From NCBI GenBank assembly GCA_965202785.1, contig OZ241855.1, positions 1,408,001-1,472,000 on the forward strand: a stretch of DNA of 64,000 nucleotides, written 5' to 3'. The translations under genes and the position numbers were made by a program. This document shows, piece by piece, positions 42,297 through 46,543 of this stretch. Position 1 is the first letter of the stretch; each line of letters begins with the position of its first letter. The notes beneath the pieces are model-generated. The model ran no database searches, was not told where the DNA came from, and saw only the letters and a list, made by a program, of their open reading frames with translations. The DNA comes from Thermodesulfobacteriota bacterium (GTDB lineage Bacteria; Desulfobacterota_D; UBA1144; Nemesobacterales; Nemesobacteraceae).

Positions 42297-43607
42297 TTGA
42301 ACCCTGACAACCCCGGTCTTTTCAGACCTAAAAAAGAATCTCTTCCTCTTCCCGAGAGAATGAGACCCGAGAGTATACAAGAAATGGTAGGTCAGGAGCA
42401 TCTGATAGGACCTGAAGGGCTTGTTACGAAAACTCTTGAAGCCGGAGGAGTGCATTCCATGATATTCTGGGGTCCTCCTGGGACGGGTAAAACGACTCTT
42501 TCAAGGCTTATCGCGGGCAGGGCGGGCGCAAGATTCATACAGATAAATGCGATTTCCTCCGGAGTCAGGGAACTTAGGGATATCGTAGCGGACGCGAGGG
42601 ATGCCCTTTACTCCGGGCGCAAGACCGTGCTTTTCATTGACGAGATACACAGATTCAACAAGGCACAGCAGGCGGCGCTTCTAAAAAGCGTCGAAGAAGG
42701 GGTCTTGGTGCTTATAGGGGCTACCACTGAGAATCCTTCGTTTGAAGTCATAAGTCCTCTTCTTTCCCGCTGTCAGGTTTATGTTCTTGATCCGCTTTCG
42801 GCACAGGACCTTGAACACATACTCGAAAAAGCTTTCTCCGAGGAAAAACTTATCGGGGATACCAATATCTCGGTTGAGGCTCGTGGCGAACTCATCGCTC
42901 TTTGCGGTGGAGACGCCAGAGTCATGCTGAACGCTCTTGAAGTCGCCTCTTCCCTTGTTCGTTCAAAGGAACTTTCCGAGATTGATACCGATCTGGTAAA
43001 GGAAATTTTTCAGAAAACCGGCCTTCTCTACGACAGGGCTGGGGAGGAGCACTACAATACGATTTCCGCTTTCATAAAAAGCGTCAGGGGAAGCGACCCC
43101 GACGCGGCGGTCTATTATCTGGCCAGAATGCTTGAGGCGGGAGAGGATCCGAAGTTCATCGCCAGGCGTCTTGTGATACTTGCTTCAGAGGATATTGGAA
43201 ACGCCGAACCTTACGCGCTTACCCTTGCGACCGACTGCTTCACGGCGGTTAATTACGTGGGGATGCCTGAGAGCAGGATAATCCTCTCTCAGGTTACAAC
43301 CTATCTTGCAAGCTGTCCCAAGAGTAACGCTGCATACAGGGCGATAAAGAAGGCCGAAAACGATGTGAGAAAAAATCCGGGACTCCAGATTCCGCTTCAC
43401 CTGAGAAACGCCCCCACGAAACTCATGAAGGATCTCGGCTACAAAAAGGGCTACAAGTACGCCCACGACTACGAAGACCATTTTGTCGAAGACGATTTTC
43501 TTCCCGAGGAGATAAAAGACAGCGTTTACTACGAACCCACGGACAAGGGAAGGGAGGCGAATCTCAAGAAGTATCTGGATGCCAGGTGGAAAAAGAGAAA
43601 AAAGTGA
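42297..43607 (+). CDS. rarA: Replication-associated recombination protein A
   Basis: GPPGTGKT, FIDEIHRFNKAQQ, GATTENP, SAFIKSVRGSD, SEDIG. Confidence 0.97.
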   Translation: MNPDNPGLFRPKKESLPLPERMRPESIQEMVGQEHLIGPEGLVTKTLEAGGVHSMIFWGPPGTGKTTLSRLIAGRAGARFIQINAISSGVRELRDIVADARDALYSGRKTVLFIDEIHRFNKAQQAALLKSVEEGVLVLIGATTENPSFEVISPLLSRCQVYVLDPLSAQDLEHILEKAFSEEKLIGDTNISVEARGELIALCGGDARVMLNALEVASSLVRSKELSEIDTDLVKEIFQKTGLLYDRAGEEHYNTISAFIKSVRGSDPDAAVYYLARMLEAGEDPKFIARRLVILASEDIGNAEPYALTLATDCFTAVNYVGMPESRIILSQVTTYLASCPKSNAAYRAIKKAENDVRKNPGLQIPLHLRNAPTKLMKDLGYKKGYKYAHDYEDHFVEDDFLPEEIKDSVYYEPTDKGREANLKKYLDARWKKRKK

Positions 43608-43616
43608 CTGGGAAGA

Positions 43617-44021
43617 TCAGCCTTTTCTCTCTATAAGTTCGATTTTATAGGAATCGGGATCTTCGACGAAAGCTATCACTGTGGCTCCGTGTTTCATGGG
43701 CCCCGGAGCTCTGGTTACCCGCCCGCCAGCCTGTTCTATTTTCTCGCACGTCGCGTATATGTCCTCGACCCCGAACGCCATGTGTCCGTAGCCCTCTCCA
43801 AGTTCATAATGGGAGGTGCCCCAGTTATATGTAAGTTCAAGAAAAGGCTCCGTATCGCCGCCGTAACCCAGAAAGGCTAGTGTGAAGCGGCCTTCCGGAT
43901 AATCGGTTTTTCTGTGAAATTTAAGACCTATTACCTCAGTATAAAACGCGATTGACTTCTCAAGGTCGCCAACCCTTATCATTGTGTGAAGATATTGGGG
44001 AATTATATGCGATTCTACCAT
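43617..44021 (-). CDS. gloA: Lactoylglutathione lyase (glyoxalase I); first ~7 codons appear to come from the TnpB element
   Basis: [36 protein letters not shown]. Confidence 0.95.
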
Positions 44022-44110
44022 CAGACAGGGAGCCTCGCATCAATTTCACGGTTCACAGGGACTGTACTAATACCAGAACCCTCCCCATGCAGTCGCGCCA
44101 TTCCCAGACG
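44001..44110 (-). ncRNA. Putative omega/reRNA scaffold (3' part) overlapping the tnpB 3' end
   Basis: Established TnpB locus architecture; hairpins AGGG..CCCT and ATGCGA..TCGCAT visible; 5' boundary unknown. Confidence 0.5.
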
Positions 44111-45247
44111 CCGTATGTTCATTGCAGCGTTTGTGTCCGCATTGGAAGCAAACCCGCAATCAACACATAGGAACCGTGCTTGAGATTTACGGTTCTCTCT
44201 ATCTGTATGCCCGCATTCGGAGCATGTCTGACTCGTATATGCGGGATTTACTTTTATAATCCTCCCGCACTTGTATTCAAGATTCCTTTTGATTTCCCCG
44301 AATGCGGTATCAAGTATTACTCTGTTAAGACCCGCCTTCTTTCTCACGTTCTTCCCCGGATTCTCTACGGTTCCTTTGGCGGAAGCGGTCATGTTGTTTA
44401 CCTTCAGGTCCTCCACTATCGCTGTCCCGCATTTCTCCGCAATTTCCTTTGTGGTCTTGTGAATCCAGCTCTTGCGGATGTTCGCGATCTTCCTGCTTAC
44501 CTTTCGGAGCTTCTTCTTCGTATCCTTCCTTCTATTGGAACCCTTGACCTGCCGGGCCATCCTTCTCTGGTACCGCTTCCGCCTTCTCTCTTTTTTCTCT
44601 AGGTCAGGCAGGAAGTAGAAATGCCCGTCCGAGGTGGCGACCTGCCGTGCATTCATGTCAATGCCTAGGACCTCCCCCACATCGGGTTGTCTCTTTACTT
44701 CCACTTCATAGAAGACAAAGGCTCTCCACCGGTGTCCGTCGTGGCGGAGCACCACCTGCTTGGGCGTGCTATTCTCATAAGGGTTCCCGCCCCTTCGGGT
44801 GAGCTTCATCCAGCCGACCAAGGGAACGCGAAGCAGGGAGTACTTCCCGTCAAGTTTCCTTATCCTGAAATTGCCCGTGTCGGGGAGTGTGAAGCCGGGG
44901 AAGGTCTTTGCCCTGCTCTTGGGTTTCGGGAAGCCTTTGTTGCCCGCTGTCGCTTCTTTAAGTGCGTCCGCAAAATACTTGAGGGAGTATCTGACCGGAG
45001 CAAAGGGAAGTTCTTGAAGCCAGTCCGTCTCATTCCTCAGCTTGGTGAACTCCATGCTGAGACTGAAGAAGCTGATCCACGGTCTCCTCCCTTTGCTGTG
45101 CTTGAATGCTTGATAGTCGGCAAGGTTCTTGTTGCGGAAATGGTTCCAGACGTACCGACAGGCTCCCGCAATCTGGAACATCTTCCTTGCCTTCGCTTTC
45201 GTGGTAGGCAGGACGAGAAACTCCACTGTGCGTATTTCCTTAATCAT
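44021..45247 (-). CDS. tnpB: RNA-guided endonuclease TnpB (IS200/IS605/IS607 superfamily)
   Basis: N-terminal GACRYVWN; RuvC motifs GIDMN, IVEDL, NADTNAA; Zn finger CSEC..CVDC. Confidence 0.95.
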
Positions 45248-45342
45248 TACAGTGCATTATACCCGATCCCGGTAGGATTATATATAATTCTTATTATACT
45301 CTTGTGATCTCCTGAGCGATAAATAGACCAGAGGCGTGTGAG

Positions 45343-45483
45343 ATGACCGGAAAGAAAGTCAAAAAACCGAAAACCAGAAAGCCTGTAGCCAAGAAACCCG
45401 GCAAGGTTATCCCCTCGAGAAAAGATGTCGAGACCAAGAAAAGATTCAGGAAACCGGACTGGGAAAAGGAAATCAAGAAATAA
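45343..45483 (+). CDS. Small Lys-rich protein (46 aa), not in the ORF track
   Basis: MTGKKVKKPKTRKPVAKKPGKVIPSRKDVETKKRFRKPDWEKEIKK*; AGAGG 8 nt upstream; stops 4 nt before the next ATG. Confidence 0.6.
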   Translation: MTGKKVKKPKTRKPVAKKPGKVIPSRKDVETKKRFRKPDWEKEIKK

Positions 45484-45487
45484 GCTC

Positions 45488-46543
45488 ATGGGGACTTCCG
45501 AGAACTTAAAAGCGGGGATAACCGGGGCGACGGGTTTTATCGGCGGCAAGCTCGCTGAAAAACTCGCAGATGACGGCTTTTCAATAAAATGCCTCGTAAG
45601 GGAAACAAGCGATACCGAGAAGCTGCGTTCCCTGGGTGCGGAGCTTGTCCACGGAGACCTTTGCGACTCCAGTTCGCTTCAAGCTTTTCCGGAAGAGTGC
45701 GATTACGTTTTTCATCTTGCTTCCAAAGTTTCTGACTGGGGACCGAGGGATGATTTTTTCAGGCAGAACGTTGAGGCGACGGAAACTCTTCTTGACTCTT
45801 CACGCGAGGCTGGGGTGAAAAGGTTCGTCTACATGAGTTCCTCTACCGTGATCTGGAATGCTTCTTTTCTGGGGACTGTCAACCTCAAGGATATAGATGA
45901 GACTTATCCCTACCCAAAGAGCCACCATAATTTTTATAATGAAACCAAGGCCTTATCCGAAAAACTTGTGAGAGAATATAACGGACGGGGAGGTATGGAA
46001 ACGGTCATATTAAGACCGTCAAACGTCTGGGGAGCCGGCGACACGGTCATACTTCCCAGAATAGCCGATGCCTGCCTGAAGGGGCTTTTGGTTAACATGG
46101 GTTTCAACAAAAAAATCGTTTCTCCATGCCATGTACTTAATCTGGTTCACGCCGCGGTGCTCTCGGCTCTTTCTCCCGCCGGAGCGGGCAATATCTACTT
46201 TGTAAACGATGGGGCGCGGATTGATAACCGCCGTTTTGTCTCAGATCAACTCTCTTCAATAGGAATTAAGTGGGAGACGGGAATCACCATACCTTATACC
46301 CTCGGGTATGCGGTTGCCTTCATTCTTGAGAAAATCTTTGAATTCAGGAAATCAAAAACTCCTCCTGTGCTTACCCGCTTCGGCGTTTCCGCTCTTTCAA
46401 AAAGTAGAACCTACAGCATAGAGAAGGCTAGAGGGGATTTAGGGTATGAACCGGTGTGCGGTTATGAGGAGGGAATGAAAGGGCTTGGGAAGTGGATTTC
46501 AGAGATCGGCGGTTATGAAAAACTCTTGGGAAAAGGGGAATGA
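45488..46543 (+). CDS. NAD-dependent epimerase/dehydratase (3-beta-HSD-like extended SDR)
   Basis: ITGATGFIG, VFHLAS, YNETK (YxxxK), LRPSNVWG. Confidence 0.88.
   Translation: MGTSENLKAGITGATGFIGGKLAEKLADDGFSIKCLVRETSDTEKLRSLGAELVHGDLCDSSSLQAFPEECDYVFHLASKVSDWGPRDDFFRQNVEATETLLDSSREAGVKRFVYMSSSTVIWNASFLGTVNLKDIDETYPYPKSHHNFYNETKALSEKLVREYNGRGGMETVILRPSNVWGAGDTVILPRIADACLKGLLVNMGFNKKIVSPCHVLNLVHAAVLSALSPAGAGNIYFVNDGARIDNRRFVSDQLSSIGIKWETGITIPYTLGYAVAFILEKIFEFRKSKTPPVLTRFGVSALSKSRTYSIEKARGDLGYEPVCGYEEGMKGLGKWISEIGGYEKLLGKGE

Follow-up and report, generated by a model that had tools for sequence, protein, structure and literature searches.

We analysed a window of 64,000 nucleotides (nt) from the genome of a Thermodesulfobacteriota bacterium (contig OZ241855.1 of assembly GCA_965202785.1, positions 1,408,001 to 1,472,000), in which a tnpB gene carried by a mobile element is directly followed, on the minus strand, by gloA, the gene for glyoxalase I (Table 1). 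The two genes share the pentanucleotide TGATG at 44023-44019, so that the stop codon of tnpB overlaps the start codon of gloA. The first-pass annotation had described this overlap and had placed the gloA start codon within the terminal hairpin of the element; the former was verified in the open reading frames (ORFs) and in the sequence, and the latter by the two outer arms of the hairpin, ATGCGA at 44040-44035 and TCGCAT at 44012-44007. The ATG lies 24 nt inside the right end of the element, the tip of which is at 43998, and the upper limit proposed earlier, 45290, is the exact beginning of a truncated left end. As read from the sequence, there is no ATG, GTG or TTG between this ATG and His12 of GloA, in agreement with the earlier claim that no alternative in-frame start precedes the metal-binding histidine; the claim fails for ATA and ATT, both of which occur here and are rare starts permitted by translation table 11.

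Table 1. Features of the tnpB-gloA locus (positions in the window)
Feature	Position	Strand	Description
tnpB coding sequence	44021..45247	-	408 amino acids (aa); stop TGA 44023-44021; Pfam domains present
gloA (glyoxalase I) as now read	43617..44021	-	134 aa; codons 1-8 (MVESHIIP) from the element, native from codon 9
Element ATG opening the gloA frame	44019..44021	-	overlaps the tnpB stop as TGATG
Whole mobile element, present state	43998..45290	-	1293 base pairs (bp); tnpB is the sole gene; left tip lacks its first 2 nt
Right terminal inverted repeat	43998..44010	-	GCATATAATTCCC; family consensus GTATATAATTCCC
Left terminal inverted repeat, truncated	45280..45290	-	GAATTATATAT; consensus GGGAATTATATAC
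Native gloA codons 2-4	43990..43997	-	CAATATCT, putative right-hand copy of the target duplication (8 bp); in relatives, ATG directly precedes CAATATCT
Terminal hairpin of the right end	44007..44040	-	outer stem ATGCGA/TCGCAT, inner stem CTcCC/GGtAG; ATG at the junction of loop and 3' arm
Candidate omega-RNA scaffold	43998..44197	-	last 200 nt of the element; strong nucleotide conservation, predicted helices
Candidate guide	43978..43997	-	20 nt after the right end; by analogy, if the IS605 rule applies
GAGG, Shine-Dalgarno-like	44033..44036	-	11 nt before the element ATG; putative function
Native gloA -10 box, TATAAT	45293..45298	-	2 nt outside the left end; also conserved in relatives whose intergenic region is empty; putative promoter
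-10-like TATAAT in the left end	45256..45261	-	8 nt before the tnpB ATG; (C/T)ATAAT in the family; putative
Terminator-like hairpin and T-run	43606..43622	-	just after gloA; sole such site on this strand from the left end to the end of gloA
Divergent gene for a small basic protein	45343..45483	+	46 aa; borders the ancestral intergenic region (about 95 nt) on the side opposite gloA; conserved in relatives

The TnpB protein has Pfam matches to PF01385 (E = 1.6e-20) and PF07282 (E = 2.3e-18), with PF12323 marginally below the cut-off, and is accordingly assigned an OrfB_IS605 RuvC-like domain and a C-terminal zinc ribbon of the Cas12f1-like_TNB type. The first-pass annotation had considered all three RuvC acidic residues and the zinc finger to be intact, and this is seen in alignment with solved nucleases: in the comparison with the TnpB-type nuclease 9yyg_A, the residues D, E and D coincide in the motifs GIDMN, VEDL and NADTNAA, and both CxxC pairs of the zinc ribbon are kept. 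The structures of ISDra2 TnpB (8bf8, 8exa and 8h1j) match the window TnpB at E = 3e-27. The best solved match is PDB 9j09_A, a 540-aa 'Transposase' (E = 1.5e-34; TnpB residues 217-382), which has in common with the window protein a long, near-identical insertion in the RuvC domain that is lacking in ISDra2 TnpB. A nuclease-dead, domesticated TnpB of the TldR type was rejected because all three catalytic acidic residues are present.

Searches of 101 genomes of the order identified relatives of this TnpB with 74-83% identity in 22 of the 35 other genomes of the genus, with up to six per genome, whereas the window's own genome (a single contig of 1.64 Mb) contains no second DNA copy of the element. 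The tnpB ORF is intact and full-length in 53 copies, and the pairwise ratios of nonsynonymous to synonymous substitution rates (dN/dS) have a median of 0.13 (interquartile range 0.115-0.143; 1209 of the 1378 pairs, with dS of 0.05-1.5). For copies at sites that are shared between species, the ratio is 0.13-0.23, the highest value being that of the pair at the argC site, which shows that the protein itself, beyond the open frame, is selected after fixation.

GloA belongs to the Glyoxalase family (PF00903, E = 1.5e-27) and matches the structures of Escherichia coli GlxI (1f9z, E = 7e-48, query residues 10-133 to chain residues 3-127) and of maize and other plant Glx I enzymes (E = 2e-72). The coordinates of the 1f9z alignment put the histidine of LHTM close to the N-terminal end of the known enzyme; the plant structures have about 25 additional residues ahead of the equivalent point, so that an N-terminal extension is tolerated in homologues. 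The sequence holds H12 (in LHTM), E62 (LELTYN), H80 (GYGH) and E128 (KIELIE), which, after E. coli GlxI, we take to be the four metal ligands (His, Glu, His, Glu). The median dN/dS between the window gloA and its relatives is 0.05 (including one mis-anchored row, L011), compared with 0.034 (interquartile range 0.027-0.051) among the other pairs; by this measure, the window gloA is not under relaxed constraint.

The ends of the element were set by flank alignment of 27, and later 56, related copies and, given the single DNA copy in the window's genome, are defined from other species. The copies diverge after a right end that reads ...GTATATAATTCCC, and the left end is GGGAATTATATAC...; the two ends are mutual inverted copies, perfect over 13 nt and imperfect over about 24 nt. 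Among the 49 copies of the genus for which both ends were found, an 8-bp flanking duplication is perfect in 22 and matches at 7 of 8 positions in a further 8, and the duplicated sequence varies from copy to copy. In five relative genomes, the end motif occurs 9-25 times per strand, as opposed to 0-1 times for a reversed control. End pairs at other spacings bound elements of 2-6.5 kb that encode transposases of 308-325 aa with Zn_ribbon_IS1595 and DDE_Tnp_IS1595 domains (L069-L074 and L159-L173), and all of them are flanked by perfect 8-bp duplications, as counted in 15 of 15 transposase-bearing elements with the identical end type. Duplications of this length, together with the same two domains, characterize IS1595 members in the available part of PMC8101967. 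Thus, from its inverted ends, its 8-bp duplications and the ends in common with IS1595 transposase elements, the tnpB element is, on sequence grounds, a non-autonomous element of the IS1595 type that carries tnpB as cargo.

The common ends, and the presence of near-identical copies at different sites of one genome (dS of about 0.03), suggest that such elements are mobilized in trans by an IS1595 transposase. Transposases of this type are present in 33 of the 36 genus genomes, counting the fragments in the window's genome; in the latter, no intact IS1595 transposase was found, only two fragments containing stop codons, so the window copy is apparently stranded. Within the genomes searched, the association of TnpB with IS1595 was seen only in this order, namely in the genus, in 11 copies (32-39% identity) in one genome of another family, and in a second TnpB of the window's genome.

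The history of the gloA locus can be read from relatives that lack the element. In 23 of the 24 other genus genomes searched, gloA is present with 79-94% identity, and none of these loci contains tnpB. In the ancestral layout, the divergent gene for the small basic protein and gloA are separated by about 95 nt, with a conserved TATAAT followed by a leader of about 38 nt. The GloA N-terminus in element-free relatives and metagenome contigs is M-(Q/K/E/R)-YLHTM, which differs from the MVESHII of the window, and in these empty alleles the native ATG directly precedes the codon that starts at window position 43997. The match of the window to the relatives extends to 45291, 2 nt past the TATAAT, and resumes at 43997, where native codon 2 begins. 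The empty allele that the first-pass annotation had proposed to look for was thus found not only in genomes of the genus but also in contigs of three public runs, which follow gloA to 43997 and continue into the native leader and ATG. One of these contigs has only 3 differences in 132 nt, indicating that near-identical strains carry the empty allele. Conversely, the insertion allele is matched across its two junctions, with no differences, by a contig of 1492 nt that comes from a different study, which rules out an assembly artefact.

Comparison of the copies across the genus shows that the arrangement recurs. An ATG is located 24 or 25 nt before the right tip in 51 of the 56 copies, and the frame from this ATG to the tip is open in every variant. 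Beyond the end, 25 of the 51 copies continue in this frame for at least 100 codons without a stop, compared with 5 and 6 for the other two frames; the latter are open only where the host gene retains its own start. With shared sites collapsed, there is an in-frame fusion to a host gene at 24 of 52 distinct sites, one of which (L041) runs for 28 codons to the end of its contig. Thus, other copies do sit at gene starts in frame with the hairpin ATG, and the one-off coincidence that the first-pass annotation had allowed for is not what is observed. NCBIfam names 21 of the 23 fused ORFs submitted, the unnamed ones being the 28-aa stub and a 276-aa protein. The fused genes encode QueA, LeuRS, ArgC, ArgB, ProC, RdgB, SmpB, RuvC, RecJ, MurJ and MscS; GspN-like, GNAT, nitrilase, threonine-dehydrogenase-like and GST-like proteins, a GalE-like epimerase and a BshB-like deacetylase; and an MJ1255 glycosyltransferase, an ABC exporter and a TonB-dependent receptor. 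The NCBIfam match typically begins at residue 9-12 of the fused protein and at profile position 1-3, indicating that the element replaces just the start codon.

The position of the insertion relative to the native start follows the variant of the right end. When empty sites are rebuilt from the two flanks of each copy, the duplication begins immediately after the native start (0 nt) for the 24-nt variant (three sites, and the window as judged by relatives) and 1 nt later for the 25-nt variant (nine sites by script, including one with TTG, and two by hand), a rule that holds at about 15 of the 24 fused sites. Real empty sites are available for argC: in 28 of the 30 genus loci, ATGA directly precedes AAAATCTT, whose place after the right tip is the same in the two element-bearing loci. 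Where the variants differ by 1 nt, the insertion is displaced by 1 nt as well, a signature of selection via translation from that ATG. If the element ATG did not work, the displaced start of leuS, murJ or smpB would be harmful in any frame, yet insertions of this kind recur, in every case in the frame of the ATG. We infer from these patterns that the element ATG is used as a start codon, and the recurrence at 24 of the 52 sites indicates that donating a start codon is a general trait of these elements. In one genome, three recent copies (dS of about 0.03) are all fused at start codons and have similar 8-mers. Among the 31 non-fused rows, a co-oriented gene begins 0-177 nt after the tip in 25, of which three keep their own ATG in or near the right duplication. 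The 15 transposase-bearing elements prefer AAA..TTT-like targets, with an (A/T)TGR flank in only 1 of 30 flank orientations.

The element ATG is embedded in a conserved, covarying hairpin. The 34-nt hairpin of the window folds at -12.2 kcal/mol, and its two-tier shape is kept in nearly all of the 43 distinct family variants, with the ATG always placed where the loop meets the 3' arm. Compensatory changes among the variants show covariation of the inner stem; for the outer stem, the pairs in 51 sequences are AU (29), GU (18), GC (3) and AC (1). Across the 51 copies, the last 200 nt of the element contain long invariant runs and 35 predicted pairs, 8 of which show compensatory changes, a level of conservation far above coding needs that fits an omega-RNA. 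A search of positions 43000-46000 against Rfam (E up to 1) found no omega-RNA or intron family; the only two matches, both sub-threshold and judged to be chance, were to ohsC_RNA (29.7 bits, cut-off 50) and sR60 (18.1 bits, cut-off 50). The ohsC_RNA match, at 43592-43667 on the minus strand, overlaps the gloA stop codon and the terminator-like hairpin and is most likely due to chance. An IStron was rejected, as the same scan contains no group I intron.

If the rule of IS605 elements holds, the guide would consist of the first gloA codons, that is, the 16-20 nt from 43997 downward; since the element is not of the IS200/IS605 type, the rule that the guide follows the right end is carried over by analogy only. 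The guide string given in the first-pass annotation starts 3 nt too early, because CCC at 44000-43998 is the tip of the element and the flank begins at 43997. The first 16 nt of the candidate guide are unique in the genome and preceded by the element's own tip, and no further genomic target was found at up to 2 mismatches. The RNA scaffold of eukaryotic TnpB relatives within such transposons incorporates the duplication, and the guide comes after it (according to the available portion of PMC10711439), so that the true guide may begin 8 nt further on.

A metatranscriptome run (X20) yielded only two contigs, 90-95% similar, that come from related copies of the element. One of them covers 44034-44116 and continues for more than 255 nt past the right end, with an adapter on the 44116 side, about 118 nt before the tip. 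An RNA end and read-through are thereby only weakly hinted at and were not counted, as contigs show neither ends nor strand and may derive from DNA.

The signals around the two starts are compatible with expression of gloA from within the element. The motif GAG(G/A) is located 8-9 nt before the ATG in most variants, and its GAG is invariant, or nearly so, in the family alignment. In every variant, the tnpB stop codon overlaps the ATG or falls no more than about 8 nt after it, in the form TGATG, ATGGGTAA or ATGGTAGCTAA. This arrangement points to translational coupling of tnpB and gloA, and the short distance from the -10-like box in the left end to the tnpB start suggests that the tnpB message is leaderless or nearly so. 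The proposal of the first-pass annotation that the element donates the promoter stands in part: the left end does have its own -10-like box, but the native -10 box survives just outside the element. A single transcript for both genes, competition of omega-RNA maturation with gloA translation and a stage of domestication, which the same annotation had proposed, would be further possibilities. No terminator-like site was found on the minus strand between tnpB and gloA.

Put together, these observations suggest the following scenario. A 1.3-kb tnpB element of the IS1595 family would have inserted, co-oriented, directly after the native ATG of gloA, with CAATATCT as the target, and severed the gene from its own start. 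The right-end frame is open over the 24 nt from the element ATG to the tip and in frame with gloA, so that GloA would now be made as MVESHIIP followed by the native residues from 2 onward. A ribosome finishing tnpB would melt the hairpin and restart on gloA, which would be the second gene of a tnpB-gloA operon, read from the native -10 box, the left-end box or both and ending at the terminator-like site. A later, single deletion of about 51 bp would have taken the leader and ATG native to gloA, together with the left duplication and the outer 2 nt of the left end; this is the simplest history, with insertion before deletion as the probable order. As the genome has no intact IS1595 transposase, the copy would then be fixed in place, and its loss would kill gloA.

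We consider it probable that an IS1595-type tnpB element replaced the gloA start in this way and that coupled start donation is a property of its family. Several observations weigh against this interpretation. On the left side of the window copy, the first two bases of the left end are gone and the duplication matches at only 1 of 8 positions, so that the site of insertion, as well as its precedence over the deletion, is deduced from the right junction, which is intact and conforms to the family rule, and from that rule itself. At 28 of the 52 sites there is no fusion, so that the ATG may owe its conservation to something else, for example the hairpin or the TnpB C-terminus. A scan of positions 43500-45500 detected no full sigma-70-type promoter, so the promoters named here are putative. 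The hairpin buries part of the GAGG and the G of the ATG, and the spacing of 11 nt between the GAGG and the ATG in the window copy is long. For the gloA-tnpB locus, the RNA run gave contigs of related copies only. Finally, dN/dS is unable to date the insertion, so that a recent loss of gloA function is possible.

The last point connects to the view that the fusion in the window is a coincidence, gloA being a dying gene from which no GloA is made. An in-frame junction has one chance in three, and the element ATG is present in non-fused copies as well; against this, the constraint on gloA is not relaxed, the motifs holding the four presumed metal-binding residues are intact, and in-frame fusions occur at 24 of the 52 sites, including leuS, murJ, smpB and argC, with the other two frames open solely where the host gene keeps its own start. 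We therefore regard this explanation as very unlikely. It is highly improbable, too, that GloA starts at the ATA at 44006-44004 or the ATT at 44003-44001: both codons precede His12 and are allowed by table 11, but the ATG is conserved in 51 of the 56 copies, overlaps or adjoins the tnpB stop and has a GAGG upstream, whereas rare starts are weak, and either codon would, like the ATG, be supplied by the element. The first-pass annotation had taken the element for a classical solo TnpB of the IS200/IS605 (IS1341-type) group, which would have a hairpin bound by a Y1 transposase (TnpA), a fixed motif of 4-5 nt and no duplication. The OrfB_IS605 domains, the hairpin close to the right end and the occurrence of one Y1_Tnp-domain gene in 35 of the 36 genus genomes are in line with such an assignment; nevertheless, it is not borne out and seems extremely improbable, given that the ends are mutually inverted and flanked by variable 8-bp duplications and that the identical end type bounds IS1595 transposase genes, while IS200/IS605 elements have neither inverted ends nor target duplications, and inverted ends with 8-bp duplications do not belong to the build of IS607 either (the parts of PMC7290912 and PMC13565253 that cover them). 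The remark that tnpA is absent proved correct, in that there is none nearby and the only Y1 match of the window's genome is a weak, single-copy gene about 500 kb away; a Y1 transposase as the partner of the elements was rejected because each genome has one such gene, of about 290 aa, weakly matching and unlinked to the elements.

The enrichment of insertions at start codons admits different causes. In one, TnpB itself drives the placement, either because the nuclease requires an ATG(A/G)-like flanking motif and guide-RNA homing retains only the copies next to one, or because the TnpB-RNA complex steers the transposase; start donation would then follow from RNA-guided site choice and not from plain selection. 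The left flank ends in (A/T)TG or (A/T)TGR at many TnpB sites, including 3 of 15 non-fused ones, as opposed to the single (A/T)TGR-type flank among the 30 orientations of the 15 IS1595 elements with the same ends and no TnpB; the three recent copies all lie at start codons with similar 8-mers, and TnpB is under purifying selection at fixed sites. Nevertheless, from the 24-nt to the 25-nt variants the motif is displaced by exactly 1 nt, which is explained by reading-frame selection but not by a fixed nuclease motif; A-rich target preference together with the loss of every gene-killing insertion could yield an equal picture, and no flanking-motif requirement of this TnpB is known; we consider a role of TnpB in the placement rather unlikely. 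In the other, the clustering at starts results from an A-rich target preference (ATGA followed by AA), the purging of gene-killing insertions and the persistence of fused copies that are hard to lose. Here, the 1-nt shift between right-end variants favours selection, whereas the contrast with the transposase-bearing elements and the three recent fused copies favour something specific to the tnpB elements; either cause may apply, although survivorship as the sole cause of the enrichment is weakened by the fact that the three recent copies are all fused.

A more far-reaching form of start donation is that the right end has evolved as a portable translation-start module that replaces the starts of essential genes and combines addiction with homing, an intron-free counterpart of the IStron. 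The module would consist of a ribosome-binding-like motif and an ATG within the last hairpin of the omega-RNA, with a frame that overlaps the tnpB stop and is open as far as the tip. Dependence of the host gene on transcription and translation through tnpB would shield tnpB from inactivation and make imprecise deletion of the element impossible, and the guide would spell the first codons of the host gene, enabling TnpB to destroy a clean revertant or an empty allele. We put this forward tentatively, as a possibility that falls somewhat short of being likely.

Several related elements and genes were encountered in the same genomes. The transposase-bearing elements were found in G070, G011, G002, G003, G010, G022, G021, G069, G023 and G068; some carry cargo, including a SocA/Panacea antitoxin-like pair, an N6/N4 methylase fused to HNH and other ORFs, and several share a repeated target beside CACGTG (AAACATTC / GAATGTTT / AAATGTTT). 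One genome (G067) has 36 IS1595 transposase matches, mostly as adjacent pairs of pieces (residues 6-127 and 119-306), which suggests an expanded family with a two-ORF or frameshifted transposase. The second TnpB of the window's genome (G000:C1:764982-766183, ORF 764982-766178; 398 aa, 28% identical) ends in an IS1595-like tip, ATACATAATTCCC, with no matching duplication seen, and 5 nt separate this tip from the ATG of a co-oriented gene whose product has a lipoprotein-like signal peptide. Another element (L077, G070:C1:323734-326735) contains a TnpB of this second type within IS1595-like ends, split by a transposase gene of the Mutator family (PF00872). The lineage from the other family of the order (L057 and L112-L119 in G033; 32-39% identical) has IS1595-like ends, GGGGACTATATAC, and perfect 8-bp duplications in both copies with both ends found, and its right end lacks an ATG in the equivalent position. 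The 10-nt inverted ends are absent around the 26-37%-identical TnpB copies of other phyla (L146, L147, L148 and L155). The conserved gene with the weak Y1_Tnp (IS200-like) domain (G000:C1:939596-939856, with a single locus in 34 further genomes of the genus, L063-L068) resembles a tyrosine transposase that is domesticated or REP-associated, and not an insertion sequence.

Transposons that land in genes are normally destructive, and the known workarounds are self-splicing introns and inteins. There appears to be a third one, in which a bacterial transposon with an RNA-guided nuclease as cargo displaces the start codon of a gene and provides a substitute, which would render the element harmless and difficult to lose. 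Within a single genus of uncultured marine Dadabacteria, two dozen housekeeping genes are affected in this way. Provided that the donated start is indeed used, this would explain how TnpB genes without a linked transposase stay intact over the long term, and it would place essential host genes under the translational control of a nuclease gene; gene callers that ignore the ends of mobile elements would then mis-annotate both the element and the host N-termini. The family also offers a compact nuclease with what, by analogy, would be a natural guide in coding sequence. No description of start-codon donation by a transposon end was found in the literature searched, with subscription papers and supplements outside its coverage, and searches for IS1595 and TnpB as one element gave incidental co-mentions only, subscription papers and the supplements of TnpB-diversity studies again being outside their coverage. 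Prokaryotic tnpB genes with DDE transposases (ISL2, IS630 and IS1031) have been reported as rare in a 2026 review (PMC13565253), and IS1595 is not among the DDE families named in the available passages of that review; the present elements add IS1595 to this short list.

Comparison with known systems delineates what is shared and what differs. The IS200/IS605 elements with TnpB and omega-RNA (ISDra2, and the IS1341 group without tnpA) have the same protein family, with an intact catalytic triad and zinc ribbon, and a similarly conserved, structured region extending over the 3' end of tnpB to the right end. In contrast, the window family has inverted-repeat ends, 8-bp duplications and no fixed left-end motif, its likely partner is an IS1595-family DDE enzyme acting in trans and not a Y1 TnpA, and its right end apparently doubles as the translation start of the neighbouring gene. 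From IS1595 insertion sequences, with which it has in common the 8-bp duplications, ends beginning with GG and, in some members, cargo, the window element differs in having no transposase of its own and carrying tnpB; compared with the 15 transposase-bearing relatives, the surviving sites of the tnpB elements cluster at gene starts. The outward promoters and open ends of classical insertion sequences activate neighbouring genes or fuse to them, and here, too, the end of an element gives expression signals to the adjacent gene; the difference is that these would be a ribosome-binding-like motif and a start codon that replaces that of the host, repeated in frame at 24 sites, with the donated start overlapping the stop of the cargo gene. 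Fanzor1 and Fanzor2* of eukaryotic cut-and-paste transposons and the DDE-linked prokaryotic TnpB proteins are likewise TnpB-type cargo within inverted ends and duplications, and the available parts of the respective texts (PMC10711439, PMC13565253) do not describe start-codon donation. In IStrons, as presented in the accessible part of bioRxiv 10.1101/2023.11.20.567912, the guide RNA and host-gene expression compete on one transcript. Both these elements and that of the window would lower the cost of landing in a gene, but the latter has no intron and would achieve the rescue through the translation start instead of RNA splicing, at the 5' end of the gene only.

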